DNA of 48,913 nucleotides. Origin: an uncultured bacterium. GTDB taxonomy: Bacteria > Patescibacteriota > Minisyncoccia > Phycocordibacterales > GWA1-40-21. The position numbers and the translations under genes were made by a program. Every line of letters begins with the position of its first letter. Within the stretch, counting starts at the first letter, position 1. Under the pieces are notes generated by a model. It saw only the letters and a program-made list of their open reading frames with translations. It ran no database searches and was not told the DNA's origin. Where the stretch lies: NCBI GenBank assembly GCA_903823865.1, contig CAIJUJ010000029.1:1-48913 (forward strand), read 5' to 3'. Below, in pieces: positions 3,765-43,247 of this stretch.

Positions 3765-4964
3765 CTAGAGCCCTAAAAATTCATTTCTTACAAGATCTTT
3801 GTGAGCGTCTCTTCTATATCTACGCATTCCCATCAATATCCCTAGACCAACAAATGATGATAGTAGGTTTGTCCCGCCGTAACTCATAAACGGAAAAGTG
3901 ATTCCTGTTACAGGCATTAGTCCTAGTGCCATTCCGGCATTAACCAAAAAATGACTCATAAATAATATTGCCAACCCTAAACCAAAAAGTATTTCAAAAT
4001 TCGTTGCCCCATAATATGCATTCGTAACAATTCTCCAAATTAAAATACCAAAAACCAAAAAGAGTATAGCTACACCAACTAGACCCCATTCCTCAGCAAA
4101 AGTTGAAAATATAAAGTCTGATCTATATTCTGGTAAGAATTTTAATTTTGATTGAGTACCATAACCGATTCCCTTTCCTAGAATTTGTCCGGAACCGATT
4201 GCTATTGTTGATTGATATGCATTATATCCAGAGCCTCTAATGTCAGAAAGTGGGTGTAAAAAATTTATAACCCTACTTTTTTGATAATCTTTCAAGCCAT
4301 AAACCCATAAGATTGAAAATGCGGTTGCGCCAATAAGAAACACAGCGAAAAGATGTTTTTTTGAAATTCCTGATACAAGAGTCATTCCAAACCATATTAA
4401 AAATATAATTAATGCGGAACCAAAATCTGGCTGAAAATATACTAGTACAAAGATGGAAAGGGCATAAAATCCAGAAACCAAAATATGCCTAATATTTGCA
4501 ATTTCAACGTGTCTTTTTGAAAAATATTTTGCAAGCAAAATGACAAGGACTAATTTAATCGGGTCAGATGGTTGAAATGATAATCCCCCTATTTGAAACC
4601 AGCTTTCCGCGCCCTTTGCAGTATGTCCCAGCACAAATAAAACAAACAAAAGTCCAAGAGAAATAAAAAATATTGTAGTAACCACTTTTGTTTTATTTAA
4701 AAATCTATAATCAAAAAGACTTAAGATAAAAAAAACAATTACGGAAATAATAAGCCAAATGACTTGCTTTTTTACAAAAGTATCATCGCTTACATAAGAG
4801 GCCATTGTTAAAAGTCCTAAAATCGCAATGACAATAACAGAGGAAAACATTATCCAATCAATTTTTAGACTAGAAAATATAGACAGTATACCCTCTCTAT
4901 TCTTGTGTTGAGAATCAGACAACATGCGTTTAGTTTGGTAAAACCCCGTAGTAGATTTTGACAT
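3765..4964 (-). CDS. rodA: SEDS peptidoglycan glycosyltransferase RodA/FtsW
   Basis: Multi-TM protein with GAESWFQIGGLSFQPSD, GYNAYQS..AIGSG, LPEYRSDFIFS, P(V)TGITFPFMSYGG. RodA versus FtsW is not fully resolved. Confidence 0.8.
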   Translation of the reverse strand: MSKSTTGFYQTKRMLSDSQHKNREGILSIFSSLKIDWIMFSSVIVIAILGLLTMASYVSDDTFVKKQVIWLIISVIVFFILSLFDYRFLNKTKVVTTIFFISLGLLFVLFVLGHTAKGAESWFQIGGLSFQPSDPIKLVLVILLAKYFSKRHVEIANIRHILVSGFYALSIFVLVYFQPDFGSALIIFLIWFGMTLVSGISKKHLFAVFLIGATAFSILWVYGLKDYQKSRVINFLHPLSDIRGSGYNAYQSTIAIGSGQILGKGIGYGTQSKLKFLPEYRSDFIFSTFAEEWGLVGVAILFLVFGILIWRIVTNAYYGATNFEILFGLGLAILFMSHFLVNAGMALGLMPVTGITFPFMSYGGTNLLSSFVGLGILMGMRRYRRDAHKDLVRNEFLGL

Positions 4965-5061
4965 TAAAAATGTTTTTTTGTTTCTTATAAATCATTTGGG
5001 GTTTATTTAATATATTAATTTTTTAAATCATAGTAATTTGACACATTTTTAAAAAACAATG

Positions 5062-5835
5062 TCAAAATTCACTACCGGGTAAAACTTTTGAGACAATATC
5101 TACTCTTACAATTTTTCCTGGAAATGGCTCTGGCCATGTAAACACGATATCAGCTGTACCGTCTGCATCTATCGAGTCGATTTTTGTTTTTGAAAAAGCG
5201 ATAGCATTGCCATTTATATCATAGAGAATGGCAACTTCTTCTATATTTGAAATTGGATTAAGTGTAGAGTTTCTCATTGTTACAAACAGTTTTGGTTTCG
5301 TGTCTTCGTTAGTCAAGTTTTTCGATACAGCAGTAATATTTGATTCTTGATTTTCAATTTTTTGCCAAACTGGATTTCCAATAAATTTAAACTCTGTCCT
5401 TGCTGGGACTTTATCATTCAAACTAATATTGTCTTCGAAAATAACAAAATTATTATTTGGCGGAAGGTATGTGGTACCAGTTTTTTGATAAAGCAAAATA
5501 TTATTTTTATCATAAACTTTAAAATTATACTGGGCATTGTAAGCCCCAACTCCAATATTTGGATTCTGTATATAAGTCAAAAAATTATACATTCCACTAC
5601 TCAAAACCTTTGACCATCGCGGTCCCCAAATAACAACTGGGTCACTAAATTGTGCACGACACAAATTTACACATGGCCCACCGCAATCAATTCCAAATTC
5701 GCCTTGATTTTGTACGCCATCACTACAACTTGGTGCTTTATTAAATGTAGTAAATAAAATTATTGCCAGTATGATAACAAAAATAAATAATATTGAAACT
5801 ATATAGGTTGTTTTTCTTCTTTGTGCCCAAGACAT
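5062..5835 (-). CDS. Membrane-anchored hypothetical protein with Cys-rich motif and beta-rich body
   Basis: N-terminal TM helix, then CSDGVQNQGEFGIDCGGPCVNLC. Confidence 0.75.
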   Translation of the reverse strand: MSWAQRRKTTYIVSILFIFVIILAIILFTTFNKAPSCSDGVQNQGEFGIDCGGPCVNLCRAQFSDPVVIWGPRWSKVLSSGMYNFLTYIQNPNIGVGAYNAQYNFKVYDKNNILLYQKTGTTYLPPNNNFVIFEDNISLNDKVPARTEFKFIGNPVWQKIENQESNITAVSKNLTNEDTKPKLFVTMRNSTLNPISNIEEVAILYDINGNAIAFSKTKIDSIDADGTADIVFTWPEPFPGKIVRVDIVSKVLPGSEF

Positions 5836-5909: not shown

Positions 5910-6070
5910 AAAACTTAGTTCGGTATTTACTTTCCCCAACAGAGGGAGTTGGAGTTTGGGTTGGGACCAAAACTTCAAAGACAGACTGAGCGAAGGCGAA
6001 GGAGTCGGGGTCGCGAGATTTTTCAGCAGAAAAATACTCGTGACTCATCGCCTAAACGGTATCAAATTTA
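5910..6070 (-). pseudogene. Degenerate 5S rRNA 3'-half relic interrupted by inserted hairpin DNA
   Basis: Minus strand ACTCCCTCTGTTGGGGAAAGTA matches the intact 5S ACTCTCTCTGAAGGGGAAAGTA. GGCGATGA (6045-6052) matches GCCGATGA, about 100 bp away. Confidence 0.55.
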
Positions 6071-6090
6071 ATTTGGGGTGGGACCCAAAT
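5948..6090 (+). repeat. Two partial copies of the mini-element terminal hairpin
   Basis: GTTTGGG-TTGGGA-CCAAAAC (5954-5973) and ATTTGGG-GTGGGA-CCCAAAT (6071-6090). Confidence 0.65.
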
Positions 6091-6449: not shown

Positions 6450-6503
6450 AAAACTTCGATTAAAATTATTTTTTGAATGAACTTCTGATTCGGAATGAAT
6501 CAG

Positions 6504-6584
6504 GTGAGATTTGGGCTGGGACCCAAATCGCAAGACCTTGAACATCTTGTTCTCGTGATGTGAAAGGTGTACAGCGTCTGTAAG
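6504..6584 (+). mobile_element. 81-bp hairpin mini-element, copy B
   Basis: ATTTGGG-CTGGGA-CCCAAAT, ACCTT..AAGGT, GTACAG, CTGTAAG. Confidence 0.6.
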
Positions 6585-7003
6585 AAGGAACACCCAAGAC
6601 TTTGCACCAGAACTAAATTTTCAATTTTATCATGTGAAAAATATTCAAAATATTTTTTGAATTAATTTCACATAACAGGTTAAAACAAACGATTTGTGTA
6701 TTTTTAAATTTCCTAATAAGAATCGGATAATTAGTATTGCTCGCCTGAATCGATTACTCGACTTACAGCTGCAACCTATCACCTGGTCATCTCCCAGGGT
6801 CCTCAATTGAATTCTAATCTTGGGGACGGCTTCACTCTTAGATGCTTTCAGAGTTTATCCGTTCCGAACATAGCTACTCTGCGTTGCCCTTGGCAGGAAC
6901 AGCAGATAGACCAGAGGTTCGTTCAACTCGGTCCTCTCGTACTAGAGTCAAATCCCCTCAAAATTCTACGCCTGCAGTAGATAGGAGACCAACCTGTCTC
7001 ACG

Positions 7004-7364
7004 CATGTTATCACTCATTACTAAGTGCATTGGACTATAGCTTCATTAAATCAGTATATGGTATGTAGTATACAGTATACTGTATACAAAATACTTAATA
7101 CTCACTCAACTGTTGGTGTTTAGTCTCTACGGGCATATATAATAAATTATATATTTCCCTCGGTATAATCCACTTTCATGGAGTCCACCGATACTAACCA
7201 ACTTGATCGTAATATTTTTTAAATATTAGACCGCCGTGATTTGATTGTGTCTTCTTTCTATTTATACTCAATAACAAAATTACTCACCTTGTTCATTGAG
7301 TTTGTTTAAACGAAAATTCCTCATGGGATTCAAACTATTAAAAAGATAATTCGTTATCTTCTTA
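7004..7364 (-). ncRNA. Group I intron in 23S (361 nt, no homing endonuclease ORF), inserted after U2593 (E. coli numbering by eye)
   Basis: Interrupts GGGTTCAAACCGT|CGTGAGACAG; ends in G; P7 strands GTAGAGACTA and AAGCTATAGTCC; P3-like AACTCAA/TTGAGT. Confidence 0.85.
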
Positions 7365-8021
7365 ACGGTTTGAACCCAGCTCGCGTATCTTTTTAAATGG
7401 CGAACAGCCATACCCTTGGGAGCTTCTCCACCCCCAGGATAAGATGAGCCGACATCGAGGTGCCGAACTCCGCCGTCGATATGAACTCTTAGGCGGAACT
7501 AGCCTGTTATCCCTAGAGTAGCTTTTGTCAGATAATCCCGGGCCGCGTCTAAAACGGGCCGTCGGTTCACTTTGCTCTGCTTTCGCATCTGCTCGACACT
7601 TACGTCTCGCAGTTAAGCCGGCTTTTGCCAATATGCTATCGGCACGGTTTCCATTCGCGCCTAGCCGACCTTAATAGGCTCCTCCGTTACTTTTTAGGAG
7701 GATAGCGCCCCACTAAAACTACCCACCAGATACTGTTTCTATGAGTTTTTTCCTCAAAGATTAGAATATATATTCAAAAAGAACGGTATTTCACTTGCGG
7801 ATCCATCTTCCCCGAAAGAAAAACTTCAAATCCTCCCGTCTACGCTACGCATCCAAAACATATACTCAATACCAAGTTGCAGTAAAGCTTCTAGGGTCTT
7901 TTCGTCTAACTGCAGGTAACCGGCATCTTCACCGGTATTGCATTTTCACCGAGCTGATCTTCGAGACAGTCCCCCACTCATTACACTATTCAAGCGCGTC
8001 TGAACTTACCAGACAAGGAAC

Positions 8022-8062
<41 letters not shown>

Positions 8063-9409
8063 CAGGGCTTACAGCAATCACCACTACCCTTGCGGATAGC
8101 AACGTCGCTGGTTGACCTTCTGGCATTGGTCAAGTGTCACCTCCTATACATCGTCTTACGACTTCGCAGGAAGCTGTGTTTTTGATAAACAGTTGGCAGA
8201 GGTACTTTTGATGCTACCCATATAAATATGGGCAAGCCTTATTGCTAACTTACGGCTGATATTTTGCCGAGTTCCTTGAAGATCTATCACTCGTTCACCT
8301 TACTCTACTCGAGCTAACCACCTGTGTCGGATTACGGTACGGTCTTTACATATTTAAGTTTAGGGAATTTTCTCGGAAGTTTGCTTTGATAAATTCACCA
8401 CGGCGAACCGTAATGTTTATGCTGCACTTTCGCTCATCATTAAAGAAAGAATTCCGGATTTACCTGGAACTCGCAATTATGCTACAAACGCAAATCCATT
8501 AATGCGCTTATCATACTAATCTTCGTCCTCCCATCACAATATATAAAGGTCATGGAATATTAACCATGTGTCCATCGTGTGCGGCTATCGCCATCCACTT
8601 AGGGCCGACTAACCCTTCGCTGATTGTCATCGCGAAGGAAACCTTGGTTTTTCGGTGTGTGGGGTTCTCACCCACATTGTGGTTACTTGTGCCAACATTC
8701 TTACTTCAACACGCTCCACCATGGGTCACCCCTTTGGCTTCATTGCAGAGTTGAATACTCTCCTACCAATATAAATATCCGAAGATATCTATAGTCCTAA
8801 GTTTCGGTATCATGTTTAACCCCGATTATCTGCGGCGCAAAATCTCTTAGTAAGTGAGCTGTTACGCTATCTTTAAAGGATGGCTGCCTCTAAGCCAACC
8901 TCCTTACTGTCTGAGAAAAATTACCACCTTAAGTGTACTTAACATGAATTTAGGGACCTTAAATTTAGATGCGGGCTGTTTCCCTTTTGACCATGGGGCT
9001 TAGCCTCCACAGTCTAACTGCTGAACAATTTACTTCTCGGTATTCGGAGTTTGATAGGTCCTGCGATATTTCTATCTGTCAGGACCTTCCAGTGCTCTAC
9101 CCCCGGAAGGTACATTCAACGCTAGCCCAAAAGCTATTTCGGAGAGAACCAGCTATTACCAGGCTCGATTAGCTTTTCACTTCTTATCTCAAGTCATCCA
9201 AGACTATTGCACGGGTCACTGGTTCGGACCTCCCCTCTGATTTCTCAAAGGTTCATCCTGCTCAAGATAAGCTCGCTCTGGCTTCGGGTCTGATCTGTAA
9301 AATAAACGCACTATTAATACTCGGTTTCCCTATGGCTCCACCCGGTAAAGGGCTTAGCCTACTTCACAGATCAACTCGTTGGCTCATTCTTCAATAGGCA
9401 CGCCGTGAC

Positions 9410-9550
9410 GGACATCACACTACAAACGATATTTACAAAATAAAAATTAAAAAATATATAGCAAAAATTACCGCATCAAAATGACACTAGTATTTTTGGT
9501 TTTAGAGTTTTTAATTTCAACTTGCAAACATCACATGCAATGTGATGCCC
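9410..9550 (-). other. Expanded 23S helix 25 / intervening sequence (141 nt)
   Basis: Replaces the ~28-nt helix between ACGCCGTGAC and GCTCCGACTC. AT-rich and folds as one long imperfect hairpin. Confidence 0.75.
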
Positions 9551-9608
9551 GCTCCGACTCCTTGTAGGCGCACGGTTTCAGGTCTATTTCACTGCCCTCA
9601 CCGGGCTG

Positions 9609-9645
<37 letters not shown>

Positions 9646-10239
9646 ATCTCTAACAATATTTAGCCTTACCGGTTAGTTCCGGCAGATTCCCTCAAGCTTT
9701 TCGTGTCCTGAGGTACTCAAGAATAATAACGGAAAAGATATTTTATTTTCACTTACGGGACTATTACCCACTAGGGTTCTGCTTCCCAGCAGATTCTGTT
9801 AACAAAATATTTTGTAACTTTTCTCATTTATAAATAAATGACGTCACCATCTTACTACACCGATCATAAACTTTATGTACAAAAATTTTATACACAAAGT
9901 TTATGATCGGTTTGGGCTACTTCCTTTTCGCTCGCCGCTACTAGGGAAATGTTGTTACTTACGTAACATTGTTTTCTGTTCCTCCAGGTACTGAAATGTT
10001 TTACTTCCCTGGGTGTGCATCTTACATCAAGTGCAAGATAACCAACAAAGTTGGTTGAGTTTCCTCATTCGGAAATCTCCGGATCAAAGGTTGCTAAGCA
10101 CCTCCCCGAAGCTTATCGCAGCTTTACTACGTCCTTCATCGCTTATTAGAGTCAAGGCATCCACCATGCGCCCTTAAATTTCCCATTAGGAAATTTAAAA
10201 ACCACAATCTTTAATTAGTTTACATCGTAAACTAATAAA

Positions 10240-10524: not shown

Positions 10525-10603
10525 GTAGTGCCAACATTAAAAATGCCGACTATACTTTCCGCTGTAATAATTGGTTTTTTATAAACATATCTGTGTAAGA
10601 ACG

Positions 10604-10632
10604 AGTATATAGGAAAGGGTATGTAAAGTCAA
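10604..10632 (-). promoter_or_regulatory. Sigma70-type promoter upstream of 23S
   Basis: TTGACT-17 bp-TATACT. Confidence 0.75.
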
Positions 10633-15830: not shown

Positions 15831-17102
15831 TTAATATTCTCTCATCGTTATCTGAGCCTGTATTTTCTTTATCAAATCAATAACAACTGATACTACGATA
15901 AGCAAGGCTGTTCCTCCAACCGCGATTGAGCTGAGTCCAGAAGCAGATTGAACTATCAAAGGAAGAACTGCGATAACACCCAAGAATAATGCCCCTACTA
16001 AAGTAATTCTTGTCAAAACTTTTGCCAAATATTCTGAAGTTGAAGCACCTGGTCTTACTCCTGGAATAAACGCTCCGCCTTGCTGAAGATTTTTTGAGAT
16101 TTGGTCTGGGTCAAAAGTAACTGCTGTATAAAAATATGTAAATAAAACAACCAAAACAAAATACAAAATACCATGAGCCCAAGGATTTGTTAGAAAATCA
16201 TTTAGAGATAAGAATATACTTCTCCAAGTTCCACTTGCAACTGCTGTAGATAAAAATTTAAATATCATTTGAGGGAAAAGCAAAATGGACATACCAAAAA
16301 TTATTGGAATAACTCCAGCTTGATTCAACCTCAAAGGCAAATATGTTGAAACGCCACCAGAAACTTTTGAACCAGTAATTCTTTTTGCATAAGTAACAGG
16401 CACAGGTCTTTCCGCCTCTGAAATAAATACGACTCCATAAATAACTGCTAAAAATACTGCAAGAAGAATAATATACATTGGAATCTGATCAATGCTAAAG
16501 GATAAACTCATTTGTGTGATTGTAGTTGGAAGACGAGCTACGATACCAGCAAAAATCAAAAGTGATGTTCCGTTTCCAATACCAAACTCTGTCATGAGTT
16601 CCCCTATCCACATCATGAGCATTGCTCCACCGACGATTATCATAAGGTTGATAAAGAAATCTAGTGAGCTAATATGTGTAATAACTGCAGAATTTTCTAG
16701 AAGTTTAAGGAAAGCAAAACCTTGTACCAAAGCTATCGGCACAGTGAGTGCTCTTGAAATCTGTGTAAATTTTCTTCTACCAATTTCTCCTTCTTCTTGA
16801 TACATATTTTTTATCTTTGAAGACATCATGGTAAGAAGTTGCATAATAATAGAAGCAGTAATATATGGCCCAACTCCAAGCATGACAATAGAAAGTTTGC
16901 TCATTCCCCCTCCTGAAAATACGTTTAAGAAACTTAGAAAATCATTTCCAGAGAAAAAAGTAAGAAGTTTTGCTGGATCAATCCCAGGTATTGGAATAGC
17001 TGCTAAAAGTCTTGAAATAAGTAAAGCACCAAGCACAAAAAGCAATCTATTTCTTAGACCTTTATCCTGAAAAACCATTTTTATTTTATCCCAGAAGTTC
17101 AT
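15831..17102 (-). CDS. secY: Preprotein translocase SecY
   Basis: LGVGPYITASIIMQLL, GIGNGTSLLIF, NQAGVIPIIF, FIPGVRPG and GGTALLIVVSV. Confidence 0.97.
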   Translation of the reverse strand: MNFWDKIKMVFQDKGLRNRLLFVLGALLISRLLAAIPIPGIDPAKLLTFFSGNDFLSFLNVFSGGGMSKLSIVMLGVGPYITASIIMQLLTMMSSKIKNMYQEEGEIGRRKFTQISRALTVPIALVQGFAFLKLLENSAVITHISSLDFFINLMIIVGGAMLMMWIGELMTEFGIGNGTSLLIFAGIVARLPTTITQMSLSFSIDQIPMYIILLAVFLAVIYGVVFISEAERPVPVTYAKRITGSKVSGGVSTYLPLRLNQAGVIPIIFGMSILLFPQMIFKFLSTAVASGTWRSIFLSLNDFLTNPWAHGILYFVLVVLFTYFYTAVTFDPDQISKNLQQGGAFIPGVRPGASTSEYLAKVLTRITLVGALFLGVIAVLPLIVQSASGLSSIAVGGTALLIVVSVVIDLIKKIQAQITMREY

Positions 17103-17217
17103 CCCAATTGTAATTTTTAATTTTTATAATTTATCTCAATTTTTTCCGACCAATTTCTATCCGCCAATGATATTCTTTTTTATATGTCCGTTGAAATTAC
17201 AACGGGACACGTAGGTT

Positions 17218-17649
17218 TTATTTAACCGTTCCTCCAGCTTTTTCAATTTTTGTTTTTGCTTCAGCTGAAACTTTACAATTTGCAATATTTAATTTTTTAG
17301 AAATATCGCCTTGACCAAGTATTTTTACTTTTGGTTTTCTTCCCAATCTTGTTTCTAGTATACCTTTATTTACCAAAGTTGTTGGTGTTACTAAATCTCC
17401 ACTTGAGAAAATTACTTCAAGTTGCCCAACATTTAGAACTACCGGTTTTGATTGAATCGTATTAAAAGAATATCCTCTCAATTTGGGCATTCTTTTGATA
17501 ATGTCTCTCCATTCTGGTCTTATTTTGTGACCAGAACGAGCTGTTTGACCCTTTCCTCCTCTGCCAGATGTTTTTCCTCTTTTTCCACCACGGCCAATGA
17601 TTTGGGTTTTTCTATTTTTTGTTACTCTTTTAAGGTTGTGTATTTTCAT
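17218..17649 (-). CDS. rplO: 50S ribosomal protein L15
   Basis: GRGGKRGKTSGRGGKGQTARSG and KIEKAGG. Confidence 0.95.
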   Translation of the reverse strand: MKIHNLKRVTKNRKTQIIGRGGKRGKTSGRGGKGQTARSGHKIRPEWRDIIKRMPKLRGYSFNTIQSKPVVLNVGQLEVIFSSGDLVTPTTLVNKGILETRLGRKPKVKILGQGDISKKLNIANCKVSAEAKTKIEKAGGTVK

Positions 17650-18677: not shown

Positions 18678-18709
18678 TTTATTAAATTTTTTTGTATTTT
18701 GTGTTTTTT

Positions 18710-18741
18710 ATACTATATACTGAATACTTATACTATATACT
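18710..18741 (-). repeat. AGTATnn heptad array (5 units) after the rplF stop
   Basis: ATACT at 18710, 18717, 18724, 18730 and 18737. Confidence 0.8.
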
Positions 18742-18743
18742 TT

Positions 18744-19277
18744 TTATGCCGTTTTCTTTCCTTCTTTTCTTCTGATGACTTCGCCTTCAAATCTGATTCC
18801 CTTTCCTTTATATGGTTCTGGTTTCTTTATTGCTTTCAAACTTGAAGCAAAACTTGTAACCAATTCTTTATCAATACCATTTATTACAATAATTCCTTTG
18901 TCTGAAGTTATTTTTAGATTTTTTGGAATTGAAACTTTTACTGGATGAGAAAATCCTACCTTGAAAACAATTTCTGCTGGTGTGATATCTGCTTTAAAAC
19001 CAATTCCTTCAACGACAAGCCTGTTTGAGTATCCTTTATTTACTCCTTCCACCATATTTGTAATATGAGAAGAATAAGTACCCCAAAGTGCTTTGTTTTC
19101 CAAAGTATCTTTTACTGGTTTTAATTCAACTTTATTTCCAACAACTTGGATTGTAATGTTTTTCTTGAAAGCTCGTGAAAGTTCTCCTAGCGGACCTTTT
19201 ACAGTAACAACATCACCGTTCACGACAACTGTGGTTTTTGCTGGTATTTCTATTCCTTTTTTACCTAATCTTGACAT
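18744..19277 (-). CDS. rplF: 50S ribosomal protein L6
   Basis: MSRLGKK, VKGPLGEL and PEPYKGKGI. Confidence 0.95.
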   Translation of the reverse strand: MSRLGKKGIEIPAKTTVVVNGDVVTVKGPLGELSRAFKKNITIQVVGNKVELKPVKDTLENKALWGTYSSHITNMVEGVNKGYSNRLVVEGIGFKADITPAEIVFKVGFSHPVKVSIPKNLKITSDKGIIVINGIDKELVTSFASSLKAIKKPEPYKGKGIRFEGEVIRRKEGKKTA

Positions 19278-19295: not shown

Positions 19296-19685
19296 TTACC
19301 AAATTTTGAACAATACTTCCCCACCAACTTTTTGTTTAACAGCTTCTCTGTTTGAAAGAATACCTGCTGGTGTTGAAAAAATTGTTGTACCAAATCCGTA
19401 TTTAAAAGGTTTTATATCTCCTGATTTTTGATAGATTCTTCTTGAAGGTTTTGAAACTCTTTGTACTCCTGATATTTTTGGAGTTTTGTCTGATTTATAA
19501 TTTAAAACAACATCAAGCATTCTGCCTGTGCTATTTATTGAAAATGATTTTACATAACCAGCCCTTGTTAGCGCATCTGCAATTGCAACTTTATTTTTTG
19601 AAGTATAAACAGAAATAGATTCCTTGCCAGCAAGGTTTGCATTCTTAATTCTTATTATAAAGTCTCCGATAATATCTGTTACCAT
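19296..19685 (-). CDS. rpsH: 30S ribosomal protein S8
   Basis: [23 protein letters not shown] and [15 protein letters not shown]. Confidence 0.95.
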
Positions 19686-19864
19686 GATGATTTTTTTACA
19701 CCGGGAATTTTTCCCTGATTAGCAAACTCTCTAAAGCAAATTCTGCATAGATCAAACTCTCTCATGTAGCCGTGTTTTCTTCCACAACGGAAACATCTTC
19801 GCACTACTCTTGATGCGAATTTTACTGGTTTTTTTGATCTAGCTATAACTGATTTTTTAGCCAT
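19679..19864 (-). CDS. rpsN: 30S ribosomal protein S14 (Zn-binding type, 61 aa)
   Basis: MAKKS start at 19864 (the track start at 19897 lies in the promoter region); [15 protein letters not shown]. Confidence 0.93.
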
Positions 19865-19872
19865 AATTAAAT

Positions 19873-20080
19873 AAAAGCTTGAAAAAGCTTGTCGCAATAT
19901 ACTAGCAAGAACCTAGAGGAAAGTCAATGAAATGACGAGTCTTATTCAGATAAGACGACTATATTTCATTGACCCCGTCACTATTTCAGCAAAATCATAA
20001 TAATTACTAAAATTGGCGATAGAAAACTTGTACTAAATTAATAAAAAAATTAACTGATAAAAATAGTGTTGGGGGTCAAC
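19873..20080 (-). repeat. Structured promoter cassette, copy 1 (includes rpsN promoter TTGACT-17-TAGTAT at 19899-19927)
   Basis: Homologous to 24003-24215 with identical blocks of 11, 19 and 12 bp. Confidence 0.75.
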
Positions 20081-20102
20081 AAAAAAACCGCTATTATGCG
20101 GT
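20081..20102 (-). terminator. Intrinsic terminator after rplE
   Basis: Minus strand ACCGC-ATAATA-GCGGT followed by a T-tract. Confidence 0.6.
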
Positions 20103-20672
20103 CTTTTTTCTTTTGCTCTTAATTCTTTTAGCATCCTCTCCTTTTTTGAATGGAAAGCCTAAATATTCTAGGAAAGCTTTTGCTGTAACTTTATCTTTTT
20201 GATTTGTAACGATTGTGATTGATAGTCCAAAAACATCTTTCAATTCTTCGTTTGATGCTTCTGGAAAAACTGAATTTTCTTTCATTCCGATTGTGAAATT
20301 ACCCATATTGTCTATTGCGTGTGCAGAAAGTCCTCTAAAATCTTTTGTTCGTGGCAATGCAACATAAACAAGCTTGTCTAGAAAATCAAACATTCTGTGT
20401 CCTCTTAAAGTAACTTGATATCCGACCGGATCTCCTTCTCTTACTTTGAAAGTAGCAACTGATTTCTTTGCGACTTTAAGCATAACTTTTTGTCCAGAAA
20501 TTTTTGTAAGTCTGTCTTCAACAACTTTGTTTTTGTTTTTATCTTTGAATGAACCGGTGCCAGAACTCAAAACAACCTTCACAATTTTTGGTGTTTGCAT
20601 TTTGTTCTTTAAACCCAAAGTTCCCTTTAAGGATTCAAATGCTTTATTCTGTTTTTCTTTTAATGACATCAT
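20094..20672 (-). CDS. rplE: 50S ribosomal protein L5
   Basis: PKIVKVVL, ISGQK, FKVREG, ALPRTKDFRGL and DNMGNFTIG. Confidence 0.95.
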   Translation of the reverse strand: MMSLKEKQNKAFESLKGTLGLKNKMQTPKIVKVVLSSGTGSFKDKNKNKVVEDRLTKISGQKVMLKVAKKSVATFKVREGDPVGYQVTLRGHRMFDFLDKLVYVALPRTKDFRGLSAHAIDNMGNFTIGMKENSVFPEASNEELKDVFGLSITIVTNQKDKVTAKAFLEYLGFPFKKGEDAKRIKSKRKKTA

Positions 20673-20688
20673 GATGTTTAATTTTTTA

Positions 20689-20720
20689 ATACTGTATACT
20701 AAATACTTATACTATATACT
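20689..20720 (-). repeat. AGTATnn heptad array (5 units) after the rplX stop
   Basis: ATACT at 20689, 20696, 20703, 20709 and 20716; same 7,7,6,7 spacing as 18710-18741. Confidence 0.8.
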
Positions 20721-20724
20721 GATT

Positions 20725-21024
20725 CTATATTTCTTTTCCTGTCTGTTTTGATATTCTGACAAATTTACCACCAATAAGTTTTTTCCCAACTCTTGCTCTC
20801 TTGCCTGCTTCATTTACCATAACGTTTGAAGCGTTGATAGGCATTGTTTTGTTTATTATCTGACCTTTTGAATCAGACTTTTTTGCTTTTTGGTGTTTCT
20901 TGCTGATATTTACACCCTCAACAACAACTTTGTTTAATTTTGGGAAAGCAGCAATAACCTTTCCGACTTTACCCTTGTCTTTTCCTGCAATTACTATTAT
21001 GCTGTCTCCTTTTTTAATTTTCAT
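20725..21024 (-). CDS. rplX: 50S ribosomal protein L24
   Basis: KKGDSIIVIAGKDKGK (KOW), VVEGVN and PINASNV. Confidence 0.95.
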   Translation of the reverse strand: MKIKKGDSIIVIAGKDKGKVGKVIAAFPKLNKVVVEGVNISKKHQKAKKSDSKGQIINKTMPINASNVMVNEAGKRARVGKKLIGGKFVRISKQTGKEI

Positions 21025-21042
21025 TATAATTTTATTACTTAA

Positions 21043-21414
21043 TTAAACAATTTCTGGTGCAAGTGATGCAATCTTTTTAAAACCCAATTCTGCAAGCTCT
21101 CTTGGAATAGGACCAAATACTCTACCTGCTATTGGATCTTTTTTACCCTTTTCAATAATAACAACTGCATTTTCATCAAATCTTATATACGAACCATCTG
21201 CTCTTCTGAAAGGCTGTCTTTGTCTGACAATAACTCCATAAAGAATATCCTTTTTCTTAGCCATTTTTCTTGGTTCTGCTTTTTGTACTGAAAGGACAAC
21301 TACCTCGCCGATTTTTGCCCATCTCTTTTTTGAACTTCCAAGAATCTTAAAAACTCTGCCTATTTTGGCACCTGAGTTATCTGTTATTTTTATAATTGAT
21401 CTTGGTTGTATCAT
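21043..21414 (-). CDS. rplN: 50S ribosomal protein L14
   Basis: DNSGAK, IRFDENAVV and RVFGPIPREL. Confidence 0.95.
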   Translation of the reverse strand: MIQPRSIIKITDNSGAKIGRVFKILGSSKKRWAKIGEVVVLSVQKAEPRKMAKKKDILYGVIVRQRQPFRRADGSYIRFDENAVVIIEKGKKDPIAGRVFGPIPRELAELGFKKIASLAPEIV

Positions 21415-21441
21415 TTTGGTATGTTAATTAAATACTAATCT

Positions 21442-21693
21442 TTATTTTAAAACTTTAAAATTCTTATTCTTTGAAATTGGTTTTGTTTCTATTATTTCTA
21501 TAATTTCTCCTTCTTTACAAGTATTCCCTGCATCGTGAGCCATTATTTTATTTTGTTTCTTTATATATTTTCCATATTTTGGATGTTTCTTAAAAGAATC
21601 GATAGAAATAACTACAGTGTCTTTCATTTTTGTAGAAACGACTACACCTTTTAATATTTTTCCATTATTCTTTTGTACTGTTGTTTTTTCCAT
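21442..21693 (-). CDS. rpsQ: 30S ribosomal protein S17
   Basis: GVVVSTKMKDTVV, HPKYGKY and ETKPISK. Confidence 0.95.
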   Translation of the reverse strand: MEKTTVQKNNGKILKGVVVSTKMKDTVVISIDSFKKHPKYGKYIKKQNKIMAHDAGNTCKEGEIIEIIETKPISKNKNFKVLK

Positions 21694-21710
21694 TTTATAT
21701 TAGTTTAAAA

Positions 21711-21911
21711 TTATGCTTTCTTTTCTTTTTTTGATTCGTTTAAAATTGTAAGTATTTGTGCAATCTCTTTTTTCAAATTTCTTCCAGCTTTAACATTTTT
21801 TGTTTTGCTTCCTGAAGTGCCGAATCTAAAATTGCTCAAAGCTACTGCTTTTTCCCCAAGCTCTTTATCTAGTTCACCTTCTGTTTTTTTTCTTAAATCT
21901 TTTATATTCAT
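21711..21911 (-). CDS. rpmC: 50S ribosomal protein L29
   Basis: LSNFRF, LKKEIAQILT; position between rplP and rpsQ. Confidence 0.9.
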   Translation of the reverse strand: MNIKDLRKKTEGELDKELGEKAVALSNFRFGTSGSKTKNVKAGRNLKKEIAQILTILNESKKEKKA

Positions 21912-21921
21912 TGTATTAAAA

Positions 21922-22338
21922 TTATCTTGCTAGAAATTTTGTATCTACTGGAAGTTTTGTCCCACCTTTTCTTAGCATTTCTTTTGCAGAAATTGCATCA
22001 ACTCCATCAACTTCAAAAAGGACTCTTCCTGGCTTGACGATAGCAACATATCCTTGCAATTCTCCTTTACCCTTTCCCATTTTAACTTCGGCTGGCTTTT
22101 GTGTATATGGATGATCTGGGAAAATTCTTACCCAAATCTTTCCGCTCTTGCTCATTGTGTGTGCAATTGCTTTTCTTGCTGCTTCTATTTGTTGTGATTT
22201 TATTCTACCTGCTGAAGTGGCTTTCAAACCAAAAGAACCGAAAGAAACTTTAGTTCCTCTAGTTTCAACACCAACTTTTTCAGAGTTTTCTCTGAATGTA
22301 TGTGCTTTTCTAAATTTTACTTTTTTTGGCATCAACAT
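21922..22338 (-). CDS. rplP: 50S ribosomal protein L16
   Basis: MLMPKKVKFRK, QIEAARK, WVRIFPD and KMGKGKG. Confidence 0.95.
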   Translation of the reverse strand: MLMPKKVKFRKAHTFRENSEKVGVETRGTKVSFGSFGLKATSAGRIKSQQIEAARKAIAHTMSKSGKIWVRIFPDHPYTQKPAEVKMGKGKGELQGYVAIVKPGRVLFEVDGVDAISAKEMLRKGGTKLPVDTKFLAR

Positions 22339-22349
22339 GACTTTTAAAA

Positions 22350-23039
22350 TTATTTATTTTTTGTATCAGCGGCTTGTCCACTTTTCTTTGCAAAAATATC
22401 TCCTTTGTATATCCAAACCTTAATTCCCAAATCACCGTATGTCATGTGGGCTTTTTCTTGTGCGTAGTCAATATCTGCTCTCAAAGTTTGAAGTGGAATT
22501 CTTCCTCTTTTCAATTCTTCTGCTCTTGCGATTTCGGCACCGCCAAGTCTTCCTCCACAATAAATTCTGATACCTTTTACATCTCTATTTGCCATAACTT
22601 TTTCAACAGTTTGTTTCATAACTCTTCTGAAAGGCAATCTTTTTTCTAGTCCTTCAGCAATCATTTGTGCGACTATTGCAGAATTTGATTCTGGTGATTT
22701 TATTTCTTCTACATCAAGTTTAAAATCTGCTGGAATAGTAAGTTTGTGTCGTGAAGCAAATTTCATTATATCTTTTCGAAGTTTGACTGAGCCTTCCCCG
22801 CTTCTGCCGATAACAACACCCGGTCTTGATGTTTTTAATATCAATCTAAATGTTTTGTCATTTCTTTCCATTTCAATAGCACCAATATATTGGCCTCTCA
22901 TTTTCTTTTCTAAATATTCTCTTAGCATCATGTCTGCTCTTAGAAAATCTTTATATTTTTGGCCAGTTGAAAACCATCGAGATTTCCAATCGCGGATTAT
23001 GCCTAATCTATGTGAATATGGGTGAACTGAATGTGACAT
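22350..23039 (-). CDS. rpsC: 30S ribosomal protein S3
   Basis: VHPYSHRLG, SRPGVVIGRSG, GRLGGAEIAR and PLQTLRADIDY. Confidence 0.96.
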   Translation of the reverse strand: MSHSVHPYSHRLGIIRDWKSRWFSTGQKYKDFLRADMMLREYLEKKMRGQYIGAIEMERNDKTFRLILKTSRPGVVIGRSGEGSVKLRKDIMKFASRHKLTIPADFKLDVEEIKSPESNSAIVAQMIAEGLEKRLPFRRVMKQTVEKVMANRDVKGIRIYCGGRLGGAEIARAEELKRGRIPLQTLRADIDYAQEKAHMTYGDLGIKVWIYKGDIFAKKSGQAADTKNK

Positions 23040-23040
23040 A

Positions 23041-23517
23041 TTATTTATTTGGTTCTGACTTAACTTTTTCTGCTTTTTTTGCCTTTGGTTTTACTTCAAC
23101 TTTTTTTTCTGTTGTTTCAGCTTTTACTACTGGCTTTGCTATAGTTTTCAACTTTGAAAGTTTAGACTTTTTTGCTGGCATATTATCTATTGTATCTAAT
23201 TGTACAAAAACATGGCTTGTTCTTTTGTTGATTGGATAAGCCATTCCTCTTGATCTTGGCATTCTTCTTTTTAGAACTACGCCTGCATCTACTCTAAATT
23301 CTTTTACATAAAGCTGATCGGATGAAATATTATAATTGTGAGATGCATTTGCTACTGCTGAGTCTATCAAGTCTAAAAGTGGCTTTGCCGCTCTCTTTAC
23401 CAAAAAAGTTAGAGAATTTTTTGCTTCTTCTACTTTTTTTCCTTTCACTAGATTGGCAACTAATCTTACCTTTCTTGGTGACTGTCTATAATCATTTAAA
23501 TTTGCTGTAATCATCAT
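23041..23517 (-). CDS. rplV: 50S ribosomal protein L22 (Lys-rich C-terminal extension)
   Basis: RQSPRKVRLVANLVKGK, SAVANA, PRSRG and KRTSH. Confidence 0.95.
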   Translation of the reverse strand: MMITANLNDYRQSPRKVRLVANLVKGKKVEEAKNSLTFLVKRAAKPLLDLIDSAVANASHNYNISSDQLYVKEFRVDAGVVLKRRMPRSRGMAYPINKRTSHVFVQLDTIDNMPAKKSKLSKLKTIAKPVVKAETTEKKVEVKPKAKKAEKVKSEPNK

Positions 23518-23523
23518 TGGTTA

Positions 23524-23865
23524 TTATTTTTTAGCTTCTGTTGATGCTTTAGCTGCTTTTGATGCTGAAATTTCTGATTCCTTTGCTGCGATATCAATAT
23601 CTTTCTGCATTTTACCTCCGTGTTTAGTAAACTTTCTTGTTGGAGAAAATTCGCCAAGTCTGTGTCCAACCATATCTTCTGTTACCAAAACATCTATGTG
23701 TTGTTTGCCATTGTGAACACCAAAAACAAAGCCAACCATTTCTGGAGAAATCTGACTTCTTCTTGACCATGTTTTTATTGAACCTGTTTCTACGGGTTTT
23801 TTACCTTCTATTTTTTTTAGAAGATTTTCATCAACATATGGTCCTTTCTTTAGTGATCGTGACAT
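23524..23865 (-). CDS. rpsS: 30S ribosomal protein S19
   Basis: [23 protein letters not shown] and [13 protein letters not shown]. Confidence 0.96.
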
Positions 23866-24002
23866 CCCAGTTATAAATTTTATTGCTACTAATCTTTAAG
23901 TTTACTATCTTTTTTTGTTTTAAATTTTAACGCTTTTTTTACTATTCACTTCATCTCGTTATTTATAACGGGACAGGTAAAATATTTGCGTAAAATAAAA
24001 CA

Positions 24003-24215
24003 AGAAGCTCCTAAGAGCTCGAGTAAACATATTAGCAAAATCCAAAGAAATGTCAAGAAAATAAAGAGCCCTGTGACAAAACAGGGCGACTATATTTTCT
24101 TGACCCCGTCACTATTTCCACTAAATCAAAACAATCATTAAAATTGGCGAAAAAACATGTTATTTAATAATAATCAATAAAATCAAATAATAAAAATGGT
24201 GTTGGTGGGTCAACA
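24003..24215 (-). repeat. Structured promoter cassette, copy 2 (includes rpsS promoter TTGACA-16-TAATAT at 24029-24056)
   Basis: Homologous to 19873-20080. Confidence 0.75.
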
Positions 24216-24259: not shown

Positions 24260-24400
24260 TTACCTTTCAACATTAATACCAGCAGTATTATTTGTACTTT
24301 CTTTTGATTCAAAATAACCGGTAACTCCCATGATCAGAAAGCTGATACCAACAATGACAGCAAAGGTAATTAAAAATTTGAAAAATGTTGAATTAAACAT
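24260..24400 (-). CDS. Small single-TM protein (46 aa; not in the ORF track)
   Basis: Hand translation MFNSTFFKFLITFAVIVGISFLIMGVTGYFESKESTNNTAGINVER*; TGC-TATAAT 7 nt upstream of the ATG. Confidence 0.6.
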   Translation of the reverse strand: MFNSTFFKFLITFAVIVGISFLIMGVTGYFESKESTNNTAGINVER

Positions 24401-36147: not shown

Positions 36148-36179
36148 AGTATAAGTATCTAGTATTCAATATATAGTAT
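36148..36179 (+). repeat. AGTATnn heptad array after the recA stop
   Basis: AGTAT at 36148, 36154, 36161 and 36175; AATAT at 36168. Confidence 0.75.
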
Positions 36180-36251: not shown

Positions 36252-36283
36252 ATATTACATACTCATACTGTATACTGCATACT
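36252..36283 (-). repeat. AGTATnn heptad array after the efp stop
   Basis: ATACT at 36259, 36265, 36272 and 36279; ATATT at 36252. Confidence 0.75.
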
Positions 36284-36855
36284 TATTTCCCCGCTCTTCC
36301 CACATAATCTCCCGTTTCAGTATTTACGGTAACAATCTCACCTTCAGTAATAAATAATGGTCCATTTATTATTGCGCCACTTTCAAGTGTAATTTGTTTT
36401 GTTCCACCACTTGATGTGTCTCCCCTCACAGCTCCCGGAGCGTCTGTAACTTTTAAATCAACTTTTGTTGGTAGCTGAACTCCAATAATTTTTTCATTAA
36501 AAATCATGGTTTCAACAAGAGAATTGGCTTTCATAAACTTTGCTGGACTTCCAATGATTTCTCCGTCTATTTCAAATCTTTTTGAAGGATCTTTTGGATC
36601 ACAAAACCAATATTTCCCTTTATTTTCATATAAAAATTTTGCGTCTTTGTATTCAATTTCAGCTTCTTCCACTCTTTCGGATTGGTGAAAAGATATTTCT
36701 GTAACCTTACCAGTGATAAGATTTTTCAACTTTGTTGCGTTAACGGGCTTTCTCATTTGTTTTCTGAATACATGAGAAGAAAGTACTTCAAAAGGTTGAC
36801 CCTCATGAATTATGATTTTTCTGACGACTATATCACTGTAATCTAGCATTGCCAT
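36283..36855 (-). CDS. efp: Elongation factor P
   Basis: KLKNLITG, PGAVRGDTSSGG, LESGAIINGPLFI.EGE..VNT.TG.Y. Confidence 0.9.
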   Translation of the reverse strand: MAMLDYSDIVVRKIIIHEGQPFEVLSSHVFRKQMRKPVNATKLKNLITGKVTEISFHQSERVEEAEIEYKDAKFLYENKGKYWFCDPKDPSKRFEIDGEIIGSPAKFMKANSLVETMIFNEKIIGVQLPTKVDLKVTDAPGAVRGDTSSGGTKQITLESGAIINGPLFITEGEIVTVNTETGDYVGRAGK

Positions 36856-38153: not shown

Positions 38154-38314
38154 GTCGTTCCCGCGAAAGTTGAAATTTGGGTTGGGACCCAAATGAAAAA
38201 CCTTTTCAGAATTTTTGTGAAGGAGACGAAACAAAAAATCGAAAAGGTTTACTGTTCCTGTAAGGCGGGAATCTAGAACTCACAAACATGGATCCCCGTC
38301 TTCACGGGGATTAC
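38154..38314. repeat. Second REP doublet; its first REP is split by the mini-element
   Basis: GTCGTTCCCGCGAAA|insert|GCGGGAATCTAG ... ATGGATCCCCGTCTTCACGGGGATTAC. Confidence 0.75.
38169..38264 (+). mobile_element. 96-bp hairpin mini-element, copy C
   Basis: GTTGAA-ATTTGGG-TTGGGA-CCCAAAT-GAAAA-ACCTTTTC...GAAAAGGT-TTACTG-TTC-CTGTAAG. Confidence 0.7.
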
Positions 38315-43076: not shown

Positions 43077-43247
43077 TTACTCGAGAAAATTTTTGCTGAT
43101 GAAAATGTGTTGAGGTTATATGAGTGAGTACCATCTAGTTAGATTTACTCTAATAAAAAAGTATATCCATTAAATCCCCATTTTCAACACGTCAGCAAAA
43201 ACTTTAACGGGTTAATTATACCACAATGTTTTTATAGAAAAATAGAG

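Follow-up and report, generated by a model that had tools for sequence, protein, structure and literature searches.

Correia repeat-enclosed elements are non-autonomous intergenic MITEs of Neisseria, about 100-160 bp in length, with 26-bp terminal inverted repeats, a duplicated TA target, an IHF site, and hundreds of copies. ERIC/IRU sequences and the pneumococcal BOX elements are modular structured repeats found in transcribed intergenic gaps of operons with an orientation bias, and they can affect mRNA stability, while some insertion sequences carry outward-facing -35 hexamers that give rise to hybrid promoters. The element described here resembles the Correia repeats as a short, non-autonomous intergenic repeat with inverted arms that is located next to or within promoters, can supply promoter hexamers, and folds into hairpins when transcribed. 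In contrast to them, it is low-copy, its flanking repeat is TTGAC (the -35 itself), and it is a mosaic of a REP-like hairpin (H1) and a long inverted repeat (H2). Similar to REP, BIME, and REPIN sequences, H1 forms a short, imperfect palindrome in which the stem varies with compensation and the unpaired bases are conserved, and the modules occur singly, inverted, or in mosaics, but there is no GTAG-type 5' tetranucleotide and the copy number is far lower. The likeness to ERIC/IRU and BOX fits the symmetric H1-H2-H1' copies of two relatives (L002 and L034), although there is no sequence similarity and both main copies studied here lie upstream of promoters, outside the transcripts. As in insertion sequences with an outward -35, the end of the element places a TTGAC 16-17 bp from a resident -10, as the spacing requires; however, the resident promoter already had a TTGAC, so a promoter was preserved and none created, and there is no transposase gene. 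Elements derived from IS200/IS605 that are associated with palindromes likewise have conserved hairpins rather than terminal inverted repeats, an adjoining fixed short sequence, and an internal segment complementary to the flanking pentamer, but here the hairpin layout is different, the complementarity is an ordinary 10-11-bp Watson-Crick stem, and no TnpA was found. Our literature search found no paper describing the element, which we regard as an addition to an already known class of bacterial repeats. With a probability of roughly 0.6, we interpret it as a non-autonomous, hairpin-rich, MITE/REP-like insertion element, specific to one clade of the small-genome Patescibacteria (CPR), which would be located at the -35 box of older promoters.

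The window (the whole stretch of 48,913 nt that was analysed) contains two copies of this structured element (Table 1). An alignment of the two regions spans about 260 columns at 83%, and copy 1 aligns with 10 other strong copies. The 19-mer TTGACCCCGTCACTATTTC has exactly two matches in the window (19969-19987 and 24100-24118), even with three mismatches allowed, compared to a chance expectation of 0.01, and TAAAATTGGCGA was also found twice. Every sequence feature that an earlier note on this DNA had listed was present where it had been placed, and the flanking genes were as named there (rplE and rpsN for copy 1, rpsS for copy 2). That note had described a duplicated promoter cassette of about 210 bp. 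The duplication was borne out, but the repeated unit, as delimited by sequence comparison, is only about 165 nt long, lies upstream of and includes the -35, and consists of the two modules H1 and H2, with the -10 and the leader outside it.

Table 1. Features of the two copies and their surroundings in the window; in the + orientation the H1 loop reads AAsGAG...CGACTAT.
Feature	Position	Strand	Details
Copy 1 (H1 + H2)	19918..20081	+	Between rplE terminator and rpsN promoter; covariance model R1, 154.6 bits
H1 of copy 1	19923..19973	+	11-bp stem GTCAATGAAAT/ATTTCATTGAC; loops GACGAG, CGACTAT; inner hairpin GTCTTAT-TCAG-ATAAGAC
H2 left arm, copy 1	19969..19986	+	TTGACCCCGTCACTATTT
H2 right arm, copy 1	20061..20079	+	AAATAGTGTTGGGGGTCAA; final 5 nt form the distal TTGAC (gene strand)
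Copy 2 (H1 + H2)	24047..24215	+	Inserted between small membrane ORF and rpsS promoter; R1, 129.5 bits
H1 of copy 2	24052..24104	+	GTCAAGAAAAT/ATTTTCTTGAC; inner hairpin GCCCTGT-GACAAA-ACAGGGC
H2 left arm, copy 2	24100..24117	+	From 19-mer scan
H2 right arm, copy 2	24194..24213	+	AAATGGTGTTGGTGGGTCAA; one G-T pair, one bulged T; ends in the distal TTGAC (gene strand), native upstream flank beyond
Divergent H2-only relative, rplO-secY gap	17096..17221	-	R1, 34.4 bits; arms CCCGTTGTAATTT/AAATTACAATTGGG, core motif ATTGGCGGATAGAAA
rpsN (S14, 61 aa)	19679..19864	-	
rpsN leader hairpin	19876..19891	-	AAGCTTTTTCAAGCTT, then U-rich tract; locus-specific, outside repeat
Predicted rpsN promoter	19899..19927	-	TTGACT-17-TAGTAT (TTGACT to 19927, TAGTAT from 19899); TGn extended -10
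Terminator hairpin after rplE	20087..20102	.	A and T runs either side; directly adjoins distal TTGAC
rpsS (S19)	23524..23865	-	
rpsS leader hairpin	24005..24020	-	GAGCTCTTAGGAGCTT; locus-specific, kept in relatives
Predicted rpsS promoter	24029..24056	-	TTGACA-16-TAATAT (24056..24029); TGn extended -10
Conserved 46-aa membrane ORF	24260..24400	-	MFNSTFFKFLITF...; marks native upstream flank of copy 2 insertion

H1 is a hairpin of roughly 40-55 nt whose stem sequence varies freely yet always pairs, and its loops are conserved (AAsGAG ... CGACTAT), often around a mini-hairpin of the GCGAAGC type. As in REP and REPIN sequences, the imperfect palindrome keeps its stem by compensatory change, with changes on both sides in 10 of the 11 pairs. 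Overall, 90% of the stem cells were paired versus 63% in shuffles, none of which (0/500) reached the observed value, and stems of at least 6 bp accompanied 16 of 53 core-motif matches versus 0.5% of random positions. The covariation of the outer stem is therefore real and strong, in agreement with the earlier description of a -35 within a covarying inverted repeat around an inner hairpin; both inverted repeats and both inner hairpins are present. The -35 hexamers of both predicted promoters sit in the outer arm of H1, which in the TTGAC subfamily reads TTGAC on the gene strand, and the alternative pairing pointed out previously, of the inner TTGAC with either outer GTCAA, is evident from the sequence itself. 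In H2, a variable, AT-rich core of about 75-85 nt is enclosed by two conserved, inverted arms of 18-19 nt each. These arms are compensated by subfamily (CACTATTT/AAATAGTG versus CACCATTT/AAATGGTG versus TGTAATTT/AAATTACA).

Comparison with relatives made the insertion directly visible. Copy 2 was absent at the orthologous site in L018, L020, L021, and L024, all four of which have retained the leader, the promoter, and the small ORF that in relatives precedes the rpsS -35 by about 50 nt. At this site the element is an insertion of about 165 nt with TTGAC on both sides, the proximal one being the predicted -35. At the distal junction, copy 2 has GTTTTAGCTG/TTGAC, corresponding to the native GTTTTCGTTG/TTGAC of L020 and ATTTTGCTG/TTGAC of L018, and copy 1 has TTTTTG/TTGAC, which matches L024. 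Occupied and empty alleles of orthologous sites were also seen in the rpsH-rplF gap, with a 175-nt copy in L002 and a gap of only 18-19 nt in the window and L018, and in yet other ribosomal protein gaps of L034, which hold three copies. In a strain with an identical L5, the rplO-secY gap is 110 nt shorter than that of the window, as known from gene coordinates alone, and the 110-nt H2-only relative in this gap is probably polymorphic between strains. As is typical of MITEs, the element is short, non-coding, and present at several unrelated loci per genome, with two copies and one divergent copy in the window.

The rpsN and rpsS promoters, predicted from their sigma70 extended -10 pattern (a TTGACA-like -35, a 16-18-bp spacer, TAnnnT, and TGn), have element-free orthologues in at least seven relatives: L018, L020, L021, L024, L025, L034, and L036 for rpsN and the first four of these for rpsS. 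At each locus the -10, spacer, and AGCT hairpin are closer to their own orthologues than to the other copy; on this comparison, the spacers, -10 boxes, and AAGCT/GAGCT leader hairpins are those of the ancestral rpsN and rpsS promoters and lie outside the repeat. All relatives examined, the most distant at 73% L5 identity, share both operon breaks, and the cargo of the rplE-rpsN gap varies among them. The breaks therefore predate the element; the relatives with a contiguous arrangement that the earlier note had hoped to compare were not among them. Upstream of rpsS in L002, the copy is decaying, and L020 and L025 contain possible remnants, so the element appears dispensable at these promoters.

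About 25 further copies or modules were found in related MAGs, differing in position, orientation, and subfamily. The search for more copies that had been suggested yielded, by exact 18/19-mer scans, 10 additional full-length copies from other MAGs and metagenome contigs; model R1 also picked up diverged copies and isolated modules, of either orientation, in further gaps. Copy number is low, with the exact 19-mer found only once or twice in each of the two reference genomes carrying it; L002, one of two contigs of a single MAG (with L003), alone contains four copies or derivatives. A predicted TTGA[CT]-N16-18-TAnnnT promoter adjoins 10 of the 12 strong (TTGAC-subfamily) copies, compared to 10.8% of all TTGA[CT] sites, and seven of the promoter-adjoining copies have a TGn extended -10. 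The genes behind these promoters encode 16S rRNA, tRNA-Leu, S14, S19, S20, and probably Pth; one further promoter of this type, the eleventh, drives the gene of an RRM protein and adjoins a copy of subfamily 2.

These associations are an argument for reading H1/H2 as a host cis-regulatory module, that is, a shared upstream regulatory region of translation-machinery promoters with binding sites for a regulator or RNA polymerase, or an upstream insulator or activator analogous to the UP/FIS regions of rRNA promoters, perhaps dispersed at first by a mobile element and kept thereafter by selection. That all the promoters adjoined serve translation-machinery genes may reflect function, not targeting. 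The arms also present two near-identical 19-bp motifs, TTGACCCC-N2-3-CACTATTT, inverted, with their starts slightly more than 100 bp apart. In the copies at the rpsT locus, the arms and H1 loops have stayed almost the same between genomes that share only about 60% of their third codon positions, whereas the core, at 41-55%, has diverged to a neutral extent; this could equally mean selection for a host function. Nevertheless, we judged a host module unlikely, given that the same promoters run without the element in close relatives, that one orthologous copy is decaying, and that the strong TTGACT promoter upstream of 23S in the window is without one. Other family members lie inside operons, in 5' UTRs, or downstream of genes with no promoter near, and a protein-binding palindrome does not predict stem covariation between copies in one genome.

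The strong covariation in H1, together with the compensated H2 arms and folding z-scores of -3.4 and -3.1, would be expected of a structured RNA, whether an antisense or divergent sRNA from the plus strand of the window, an operon processing or stability element, or a long leader or switch acting through the alternative TTGAC pairings. The five symmetric H1-H2-H1' copies, located inside operons or 5' UTRs, share one orientation relative to transcription and each stop exactly at the downstream ATG. The few G-U pairs favour the plus strand, as the earlier note had argued from the single G-T pair of copy 2, but this bias did not hold up: the L002 copy is biased the opposite way, and the consensus folds equally well on either strand (-22.0 versus -23.2 kcal/mol). 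Moreover, copies 1 and 2 are not in a 5' UTR, as a riboswitch or ribosomal protein leader would be, but upstream of the -35, and so are not transcribed from the predicted promoters. Neither strand showed a consistent promoter inside or beside the copies examined, and the family is multi-copy, present or absent among relatives, and found in either orientation to genes, varying by subfamily, which does not fit a small RNA gene. The AT-rich core is not conserved, and no Rfam family matches the element, even at E<=10. A structured RNA is thus highly unlikely. As for the main proposal of the earlier note, a portable promoter or switch cassette of about 210 bp whose duplication created both breaks and re-wired the S10/spc operons, the good extended -10 promoter and similar AGCT hairpin at both copies might suggest it, but it is scarcely tenable because the -10 boxes and leader hairpins are ancestral at each locus and the breaks are older; the note's MITE alternative is the one that the evidence favoured.

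In the TTGAC subfamily the element meets an older sigma70-type promoter precisely at its -35, with the native upstream flank and a TTGAC displaced about 165 nt to the far end and another TTGAC next to the native spacer, -10, and leader. For an insertion element, the mechanism would be as follows. Insertion may be directed by TTGAC, through either a 5-bp target duplication or an element end carrying TTGAC, and would in this way keep the promoter working. The hairpins may be recognised in single-stranded form by a putative recombinase or transposase, and any effect on expression would be modulatory, for example by replacement of the upstream region or placement of the -35 in a stem. Against mobility, the flanking pentamers are not always identical, so that a target duplication is at best putative: TTGAC is found at both ends in W1, W2, L002, L005, and L014, but TTGAC/TTGAT flanks other copies, and no such flanks were seen on the symmetric ones. 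Inverted ends of about 50 nt occur in the symmetric copies (L002, L034); in the asymmetric copies 1 and 2, H1 is confined to one end, and the outer ends have no clean terminal inverted repeats.

No cognate autonomous element with the same ends, and no transposase, was found in the window, the examined loci of relatives, or viral contigs. RAYT-like Y1 genes (proteins of 39-48 bits versus an NCBIfam cut-off of 80 bits) occur in relatives at the very same hotspots as the element. A REP/REPIN-RAYT system, in which the RAYT gene is flanked by the same dispersed palindromes, was considered and rejected: in L021 and L024 the Y1 genes are flanked by the unrelated GC-rich palindromes CCCCGAGGTTsAACCTCGGGG and ACCAAGGGTAAACCTTGGT.

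A bolder version, which we regard as distinctly unlikely, is that a structured mobile element of the CPR homes specifically to the -35 of the strongest promoters (rRNA, tRNA, and ribosomal protein) and that its arms and loops have been selected as a shared upstream control module. If this were true, bacteria would have an equivalent of promoter-targeting elements, one through which a minimal genome, poor in regulators, could keep its translation genes in step.

All of the sequence features listed in the earlier note were confirmed, with the two regions (copies W1 and W2, upstream of rpsN and rpsS, respectively) 83% identical to each other in alignment A1. The 19-mer TTGACCCCGTCACTATTTC matched the window only at 19969 and 24100 when up to three mismatches were allowed, against a chance expectation of 0.01 for the window. 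The duplicated structured segments are real, and the unit is an insertion element with a -35 junction. Exact scans, followed by a covariance model, uncovered further copies beyond the window: when one genome per species was scanned for exact matches, the 19-mer occurred in two other MAGs (three loci in total), and an 18-mer scan of metagenomes returned 14 contigs, seven with the whole element and seven with chance matches. The covariance model (R1), for which 11 copies served as input, was then used to detect divergent relatives, which are included in the table with the other features. The rplO-secY gap of the window, which holds the weak copy, was 110 nt shorter (from gene coordinates only) in a strain whose L5 protein is identical, suggesting that the copy was recently gained or lost. 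The 18-mer had no match in viral contigs, and eight matches there to the core of the H1 hairpin module were dismissed as chance, being Shine-Dalgarno plus ATG contexts with no flanking stems. Searches of both regions against Rfam (gathering thresholds; E<=10) gave noise only. In proteobacteria and firmicutes, small structured repeats are familiar; our literature searches turned up none from Patescibacteria/CPR and nothing relevant to the element. We concluded that the duplicated unit belongs to a clade-specific, hitherto undescribed family of structured insertion elements, and that the family is of an already known kind, the bacterial MITE/REP-like repeats.

Coordinates and loci of the features discussed (L numbers denote loci or contigs of other MAGs and metagenomes; bare coordinates refer to the window)
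Feature	Location	Strand	Remark
rpsS	23865..23524	minus	
rplV through rplX	between rpsS and rplE	minus	
rplE	20672..20094	minus	
rpsN	19864..19679	minus	
rpsH onward	after rpsN	minus	
46-aa membrane ORF (MFNSTFFKFLITFAVIVGISFLIMG...)	24400..24260	minus	uncalled; under 50-aa cut-off of ORF list
rpsN promoter TTGACT-17-TAGTAT, TGn	19927..19899	minus	among best promoter matches of region
rpsS promoter TTGACA-16-TAATAT, TGn	24056..24029	minus	among best promoter matches of region
Leader hairpins	19876-19891, 24005-24020	minus	
Promoter match TTGACT-17-TATACT	10600-10632	minus	~410 nt upstream of 23S, no adjoining element
Weak H2-only copy	17096-17221	minus	rplO-secY gap; R1
Second, tandem copy	L017		R1
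Symmetric H1-H2-H1' copy	L002, rpsH-rplF		R1
Decayed copy upstream of rpsS, mini-copy in rpsS 5' UTR	L002		R1
Copy downstream of rpsT	L016		R1
Three symmetric copies	L034		R1
Promoter-abutting copy, rpsN downstream	W1, L002		
Same, rpsS downstream	W2		
Same, rpsT downstream	L001, L010, L016		
Same, tRNA-Leu downstream	L003		
Same, 16S rRNA downstream	L005		
Same, probably pth downstream	L014		N-terminus only read
Same, no downstream gene before contig end	L006		tenth copy
RRM-protein promoter	L017		of adjacent tandem subfamily 2 copy, not strong copy
RAYT-like Y1 gene	L024 4982-5647		rplE-rpsN gap
RAYT-like Y1 gene	L021 4257-4910		between PG-binding and PKD genes; interrupted in frame by GC-rich palindromes
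RAYT-like Y1 gene	L034 3971-4717		between PG-binding and PKD genes
Second palindromic insert family	43077-43235	minus	
Second palindromic insert family	L018 6410-6545	plus	
AGTATA-type heptamer runs	18704-18768, 20683-20747, 36265-36285, 36151-36172, 7046-7109		
GC-cored palindromes	5947-5973, 6064-6090, 6502-6528, 38168-38194		around 5S, upstream of rpsF
23S rRNA match	6710-10190	minus	3481 nt vs 2925-position model
23-nt inverted repeat	4943-4965 / 5058-5080		87% complementary, arms 92 nt apart
Diversity-generating retroelement signature	L034 17400-18815		bAvd + reverse transcriptase, adjoining r-protein cluster

In every copy of alignment A3, read in the plus-strand orientation, H1 has the layout (G/A)TCAAnnAAAT - AAsGAG - variable mini-hairpin, often GCGAAGC or GCAAAGC - CGACTAT - ATTTnnTTGAC, and the inverted arms of H2 follow as TTGACCCCGTCACTATTT - AT-rich core of ~75-85 nt with AAAATTGGCGAnAGAAAAC - GATAAAAATAGTGTTGGGGGTCAA. 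The pairing of H1 is strongly supported by sequence comparison. Its stems, 6-12 bp long in 16 modules, are Watson-Crick throughout and comprise at least 10 distinct stem sequences; stems of at least 6 bp occurred at 16 of 53 loop-motif matches versus 0.5% of random positions. In alignment A5, 10 of 11 H1 pairs were changed on both sides, and 90% of H1 cells were paired, versus 63% when shuffled and 38-52% with the partner columns slid. Among strong copies H2 was invariant, which is partly ascertainment, since its left arm was the search query; by subfamily, compensated arms were CCCAGCACCATTTT/AAAATGGTGCTGGG, ACCCTGTGAAATA/TATTTCACAGGGT, and CCCGTTGTAATTT/AAATTACAATTGGG. The two mutually exclusive folds proposed in the earlier note correspond to an internal GTCAA that is able to pair with either flanking TTGAC repeat. 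The bias toward plus-strand folding drawn from a G-T pair was not robust: of the G-U-pair variants, three favored the plus strand but one favored the minus strand, and on both strands the consensus folded equally well, with equal energies. Because the H1 loops are 18-31 nt long, extrusion from duplex DNA appears unlikely, and single-stranded DNA or RNA is accordingly the probable selected state of the element. Two other candidates were rejected: a short peptide (TTG start, 13 codons, MTPSLF...), open in W1, W2, and L003, lacked its stop in L001 and L002 and had no start context, and likeness to parS, dif, attC, or DnaA boxes was dropped with no motif match.

The insertion junctions were examined against relatives retrieved via their L5 proteins (73-90% identical). 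From the small ORF to the -35 box of rpsS the distance is ~50 nt in relatives, and the window is ~165 nt longer (A4). On the gene strand, W2 reads ...CCGTTTTAGCTG-TTGAC-[CCACCAACACC ... CTCTTTATTTTC-TTGAC]-ATTTCTTTGG, and the sequence before its distal TTGAC agrees with the native upstream flank found in L020 (GTTTTCGTTG-TTGAC; 8 of 10 positions, with a roughly estimated fixed-position chance of ~0.002) and L018 (ATTTTGCTG-TTGAC). At the distal junction of W1, the T-run of the rplE terminator and a G precede TTGAC (compare TTTTTG-TTGAC in L024). Because the flanks before the distal TTGAC match native sequence, the element is flanked by direct TTGAC repeats, and by sequence TTGAC would be either a 5-bp target duplication or an element end carrying TTGAC; in some other copies the flanking pentamers are unlike (TTGAC/TTGAT). 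In L020 and L025, ATTTCATTGAC stands at the rpsN -35 box with short, unrelated-looking sequence upstream that may represent deletion remnants.

The element joins the -35 box at an exact point, and this junction recurs. The arrangement TTGA[CT]-N16-18-TAnnnT was present at the H1 end of 10 of the 12 strong copies (nine by script, L014 by eye), seven of these with TGn; across all TTGA[CT] sites of those loci its frequency was only 10.8%. The other side of the element often faces a divergently oriented gene (ruvA or parB) that has a promoter of its own, and in most copies neither the distal nor the middle TTGAC has a suitably spaced -10 box on either strand. Two explanations would account for the promoter association. 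If insertion is directed to TTGAC, copies in a compact genome would survive only in intergenic DNA, where a consensus TTGAC would mostly be the -35 box of one of the strongest promoters, and insertion would regenerate the box. Retention of the module for an effect on these promoters also fits. Some constraint is favored by the three copies at rpsT loci: their core is only 41-55% identical, similar to the ~60% at rpsT third codon positions, but their arms and H1 loops hardly vary; the same pattern, however, is expected from continued mobility of conserved master copies. Against a required function, close relatives lack the element, decay is seen in the L002 copy upstream of rpsS, and no copy occupies the window's own strong-looking TTGACT-17-TATACT promoter upstream of 23S. 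A TATAGTCG motif near that promoter, at ~10550, is possibly chance or an H1 remnant. Comparison of W1 with its L002 orthologue as a test of purifying selection is confounded by the unusually high similarity of rpsN between the two genomes: between rpsN of the window and L002 1492-1677, 0.81 of 4-fold sites were identical, with 0.56-0.58 for the neighboring rpsH and rplF, which hints either at strong codon bias or at a recombination tract that spans both rpsN and the element.

The window (GC ~33%) is low-GC Patescibacteria/CPR DNA; MAGs sharing the element are labelled 'Candidatus Saccharibacteria' in public records, and the closest L5 proteins carry the labels Paceibacterota, Minisyncoccia, or Patescibacteria in their sources. 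Upstream of rpsS, rplB is absent, and a 1254-aa PG-binding-domain protein, an LTD/PKD protein, and the 46-aa membrane ORF are found, the last flanked by the PKD gene and rpsS and kept in all relatives examined. The synteny PG-binding protein - PKD protein - small ORF - rpsS ... rplE - gap - rpsN is common to the relatives, and both breaks in the ribosomal protein cluster were present in every relative fetched. Cargo of the rplE-rpsN gap varies by genome, with small ORFs in L018 and L021, three ORFs (two with Lcl_C domains) in L002, a RAYT-like Y1 transposase in L024, EamA and GrpB in L036, and a 281-aa ORF in L035.

The element was found at neither site in L018-L021, L024, L025, and L036. These relatives all keep the rpsN promoter and leader, TTGACTT..TTCTTGCTAGTATATTGCAACAAGCTTTTTCAAGCTTTTTATTTTA, and, where the contig reaches, the rpsS promoter and leader, TTGACATT..TTTTGCTAATATGCTAA.TCGAGCTCTTAGAGCTT. 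A small AGCT hairpin follows each promoter, and because element-free relatives keep both, the -10 boxes and AGCT hairpins are ancestral and locus-specific. From these comparisons, the likeness of the rpsN and rpsS promoters is a trait of the clade's ribosomal protein promoters, not of the repeat, and promoters and operon breaks predate the element. The suggestion that a duplicated promoter cassette rewired the operons is unsupported, since relatives without the element keep the promoters, the leaders, and both breaks. The leader hairpin, of the form (A/G)AGCT-loop-AGCTT, lies a few bases downstream of the -10 box, leads into a U-rich tract, and is conserved for rpsN and rpsS at orthologous sites in L018, L020, L021, L024, L025, L034, and L036; it could be a 5' stabiliser or attenuator common to these promoters.

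Five symmetric H1-H2-H1' copies lie inside transcripts (L002 rpsH-rplF, the rpsS 5' UTRs of L002 and L034, and L034 rpsC-rplP and rplX-rplE), all five in the same orientation relative to transcription and each ending ...AAAAATCA(A/T)TC directly before the downstream ATG. In L034 (8050-8079) the rpsC frame enters a copy and stops inside the H1 loop, and the element therefore supplies C-terminal codons of S3. The symmetric subfamily behaves like ERIC- or BOX-type elements, and its sequences suggest constraints at the level of RNA or translation.

The window encodes no transposase. RAYT-like Y1 genes in relatives match Pfam Y1_Tnp and, at 39-48 bits, fall under the cut-off of 80 for NCBIfam REP_Tyr_transpos; they occupy the same two hotspots as the element and are flanked by GC-rich palindromes. 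These palindromes match neither H1 nor H2, and the link of the Y1 genes to the element, as candidate mobilisers, is therefore only circumstantial.

Other repeats were also observed. The second palindromic insert family has the arms TTTTTGCTGAcGTGTTGA / TCAACACattttcaTCAGCAAAAA and no Rfam match. It sits between a TGGTATAAT -10 box and the start codon, at a site that is empty in both L020 and L034; a likeness between its 3' arm CTCAACACATTTTCATCAG and the H2 arm CCCAACACTATTTTTATCAG makes it a possible distant relative of the element. The heptamer runs (AGTATATAGTATAAGTATTyAGTATAyAGTAT, gene strand) lie directly 3' of the rplF, rplX, and efp stop codons, with a palindromic cluster inside the 23S region, and an exact 18-mer of theirs occurred in same-species contigs only (L022, L023). 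The 23S match has ~550 extra nt, in which neither a credible ORF nor an intron family was detected, and the 23S-5S pair has no adjacent 16S gene. The GC-cored palindromes (ATTTGGGyTGGGACCCAAAT) look REP-like, and of the 23-nt inverted repeat, one arm falls within the final codons of ORF 5062-5835 and the other within the initial codons of ftsW.

The insertion element accounts for the 'duplicated promoters' without operon rewiring, and CPR genomes of ~1 Mb too carry repeats, apparently mobile recently, within their most conserved gene cluster. The element and its relatives are of practical use as strain markers and call for caution in promoter and ncRNA prediction in CPR MAGs. Exact abutment to the -35 boxes of translation-machinery promoters is unusual and, if it reflects targeting or co-option, would offer a tractable entry to the control of transcription in organisms not yet amenable to manipulation.
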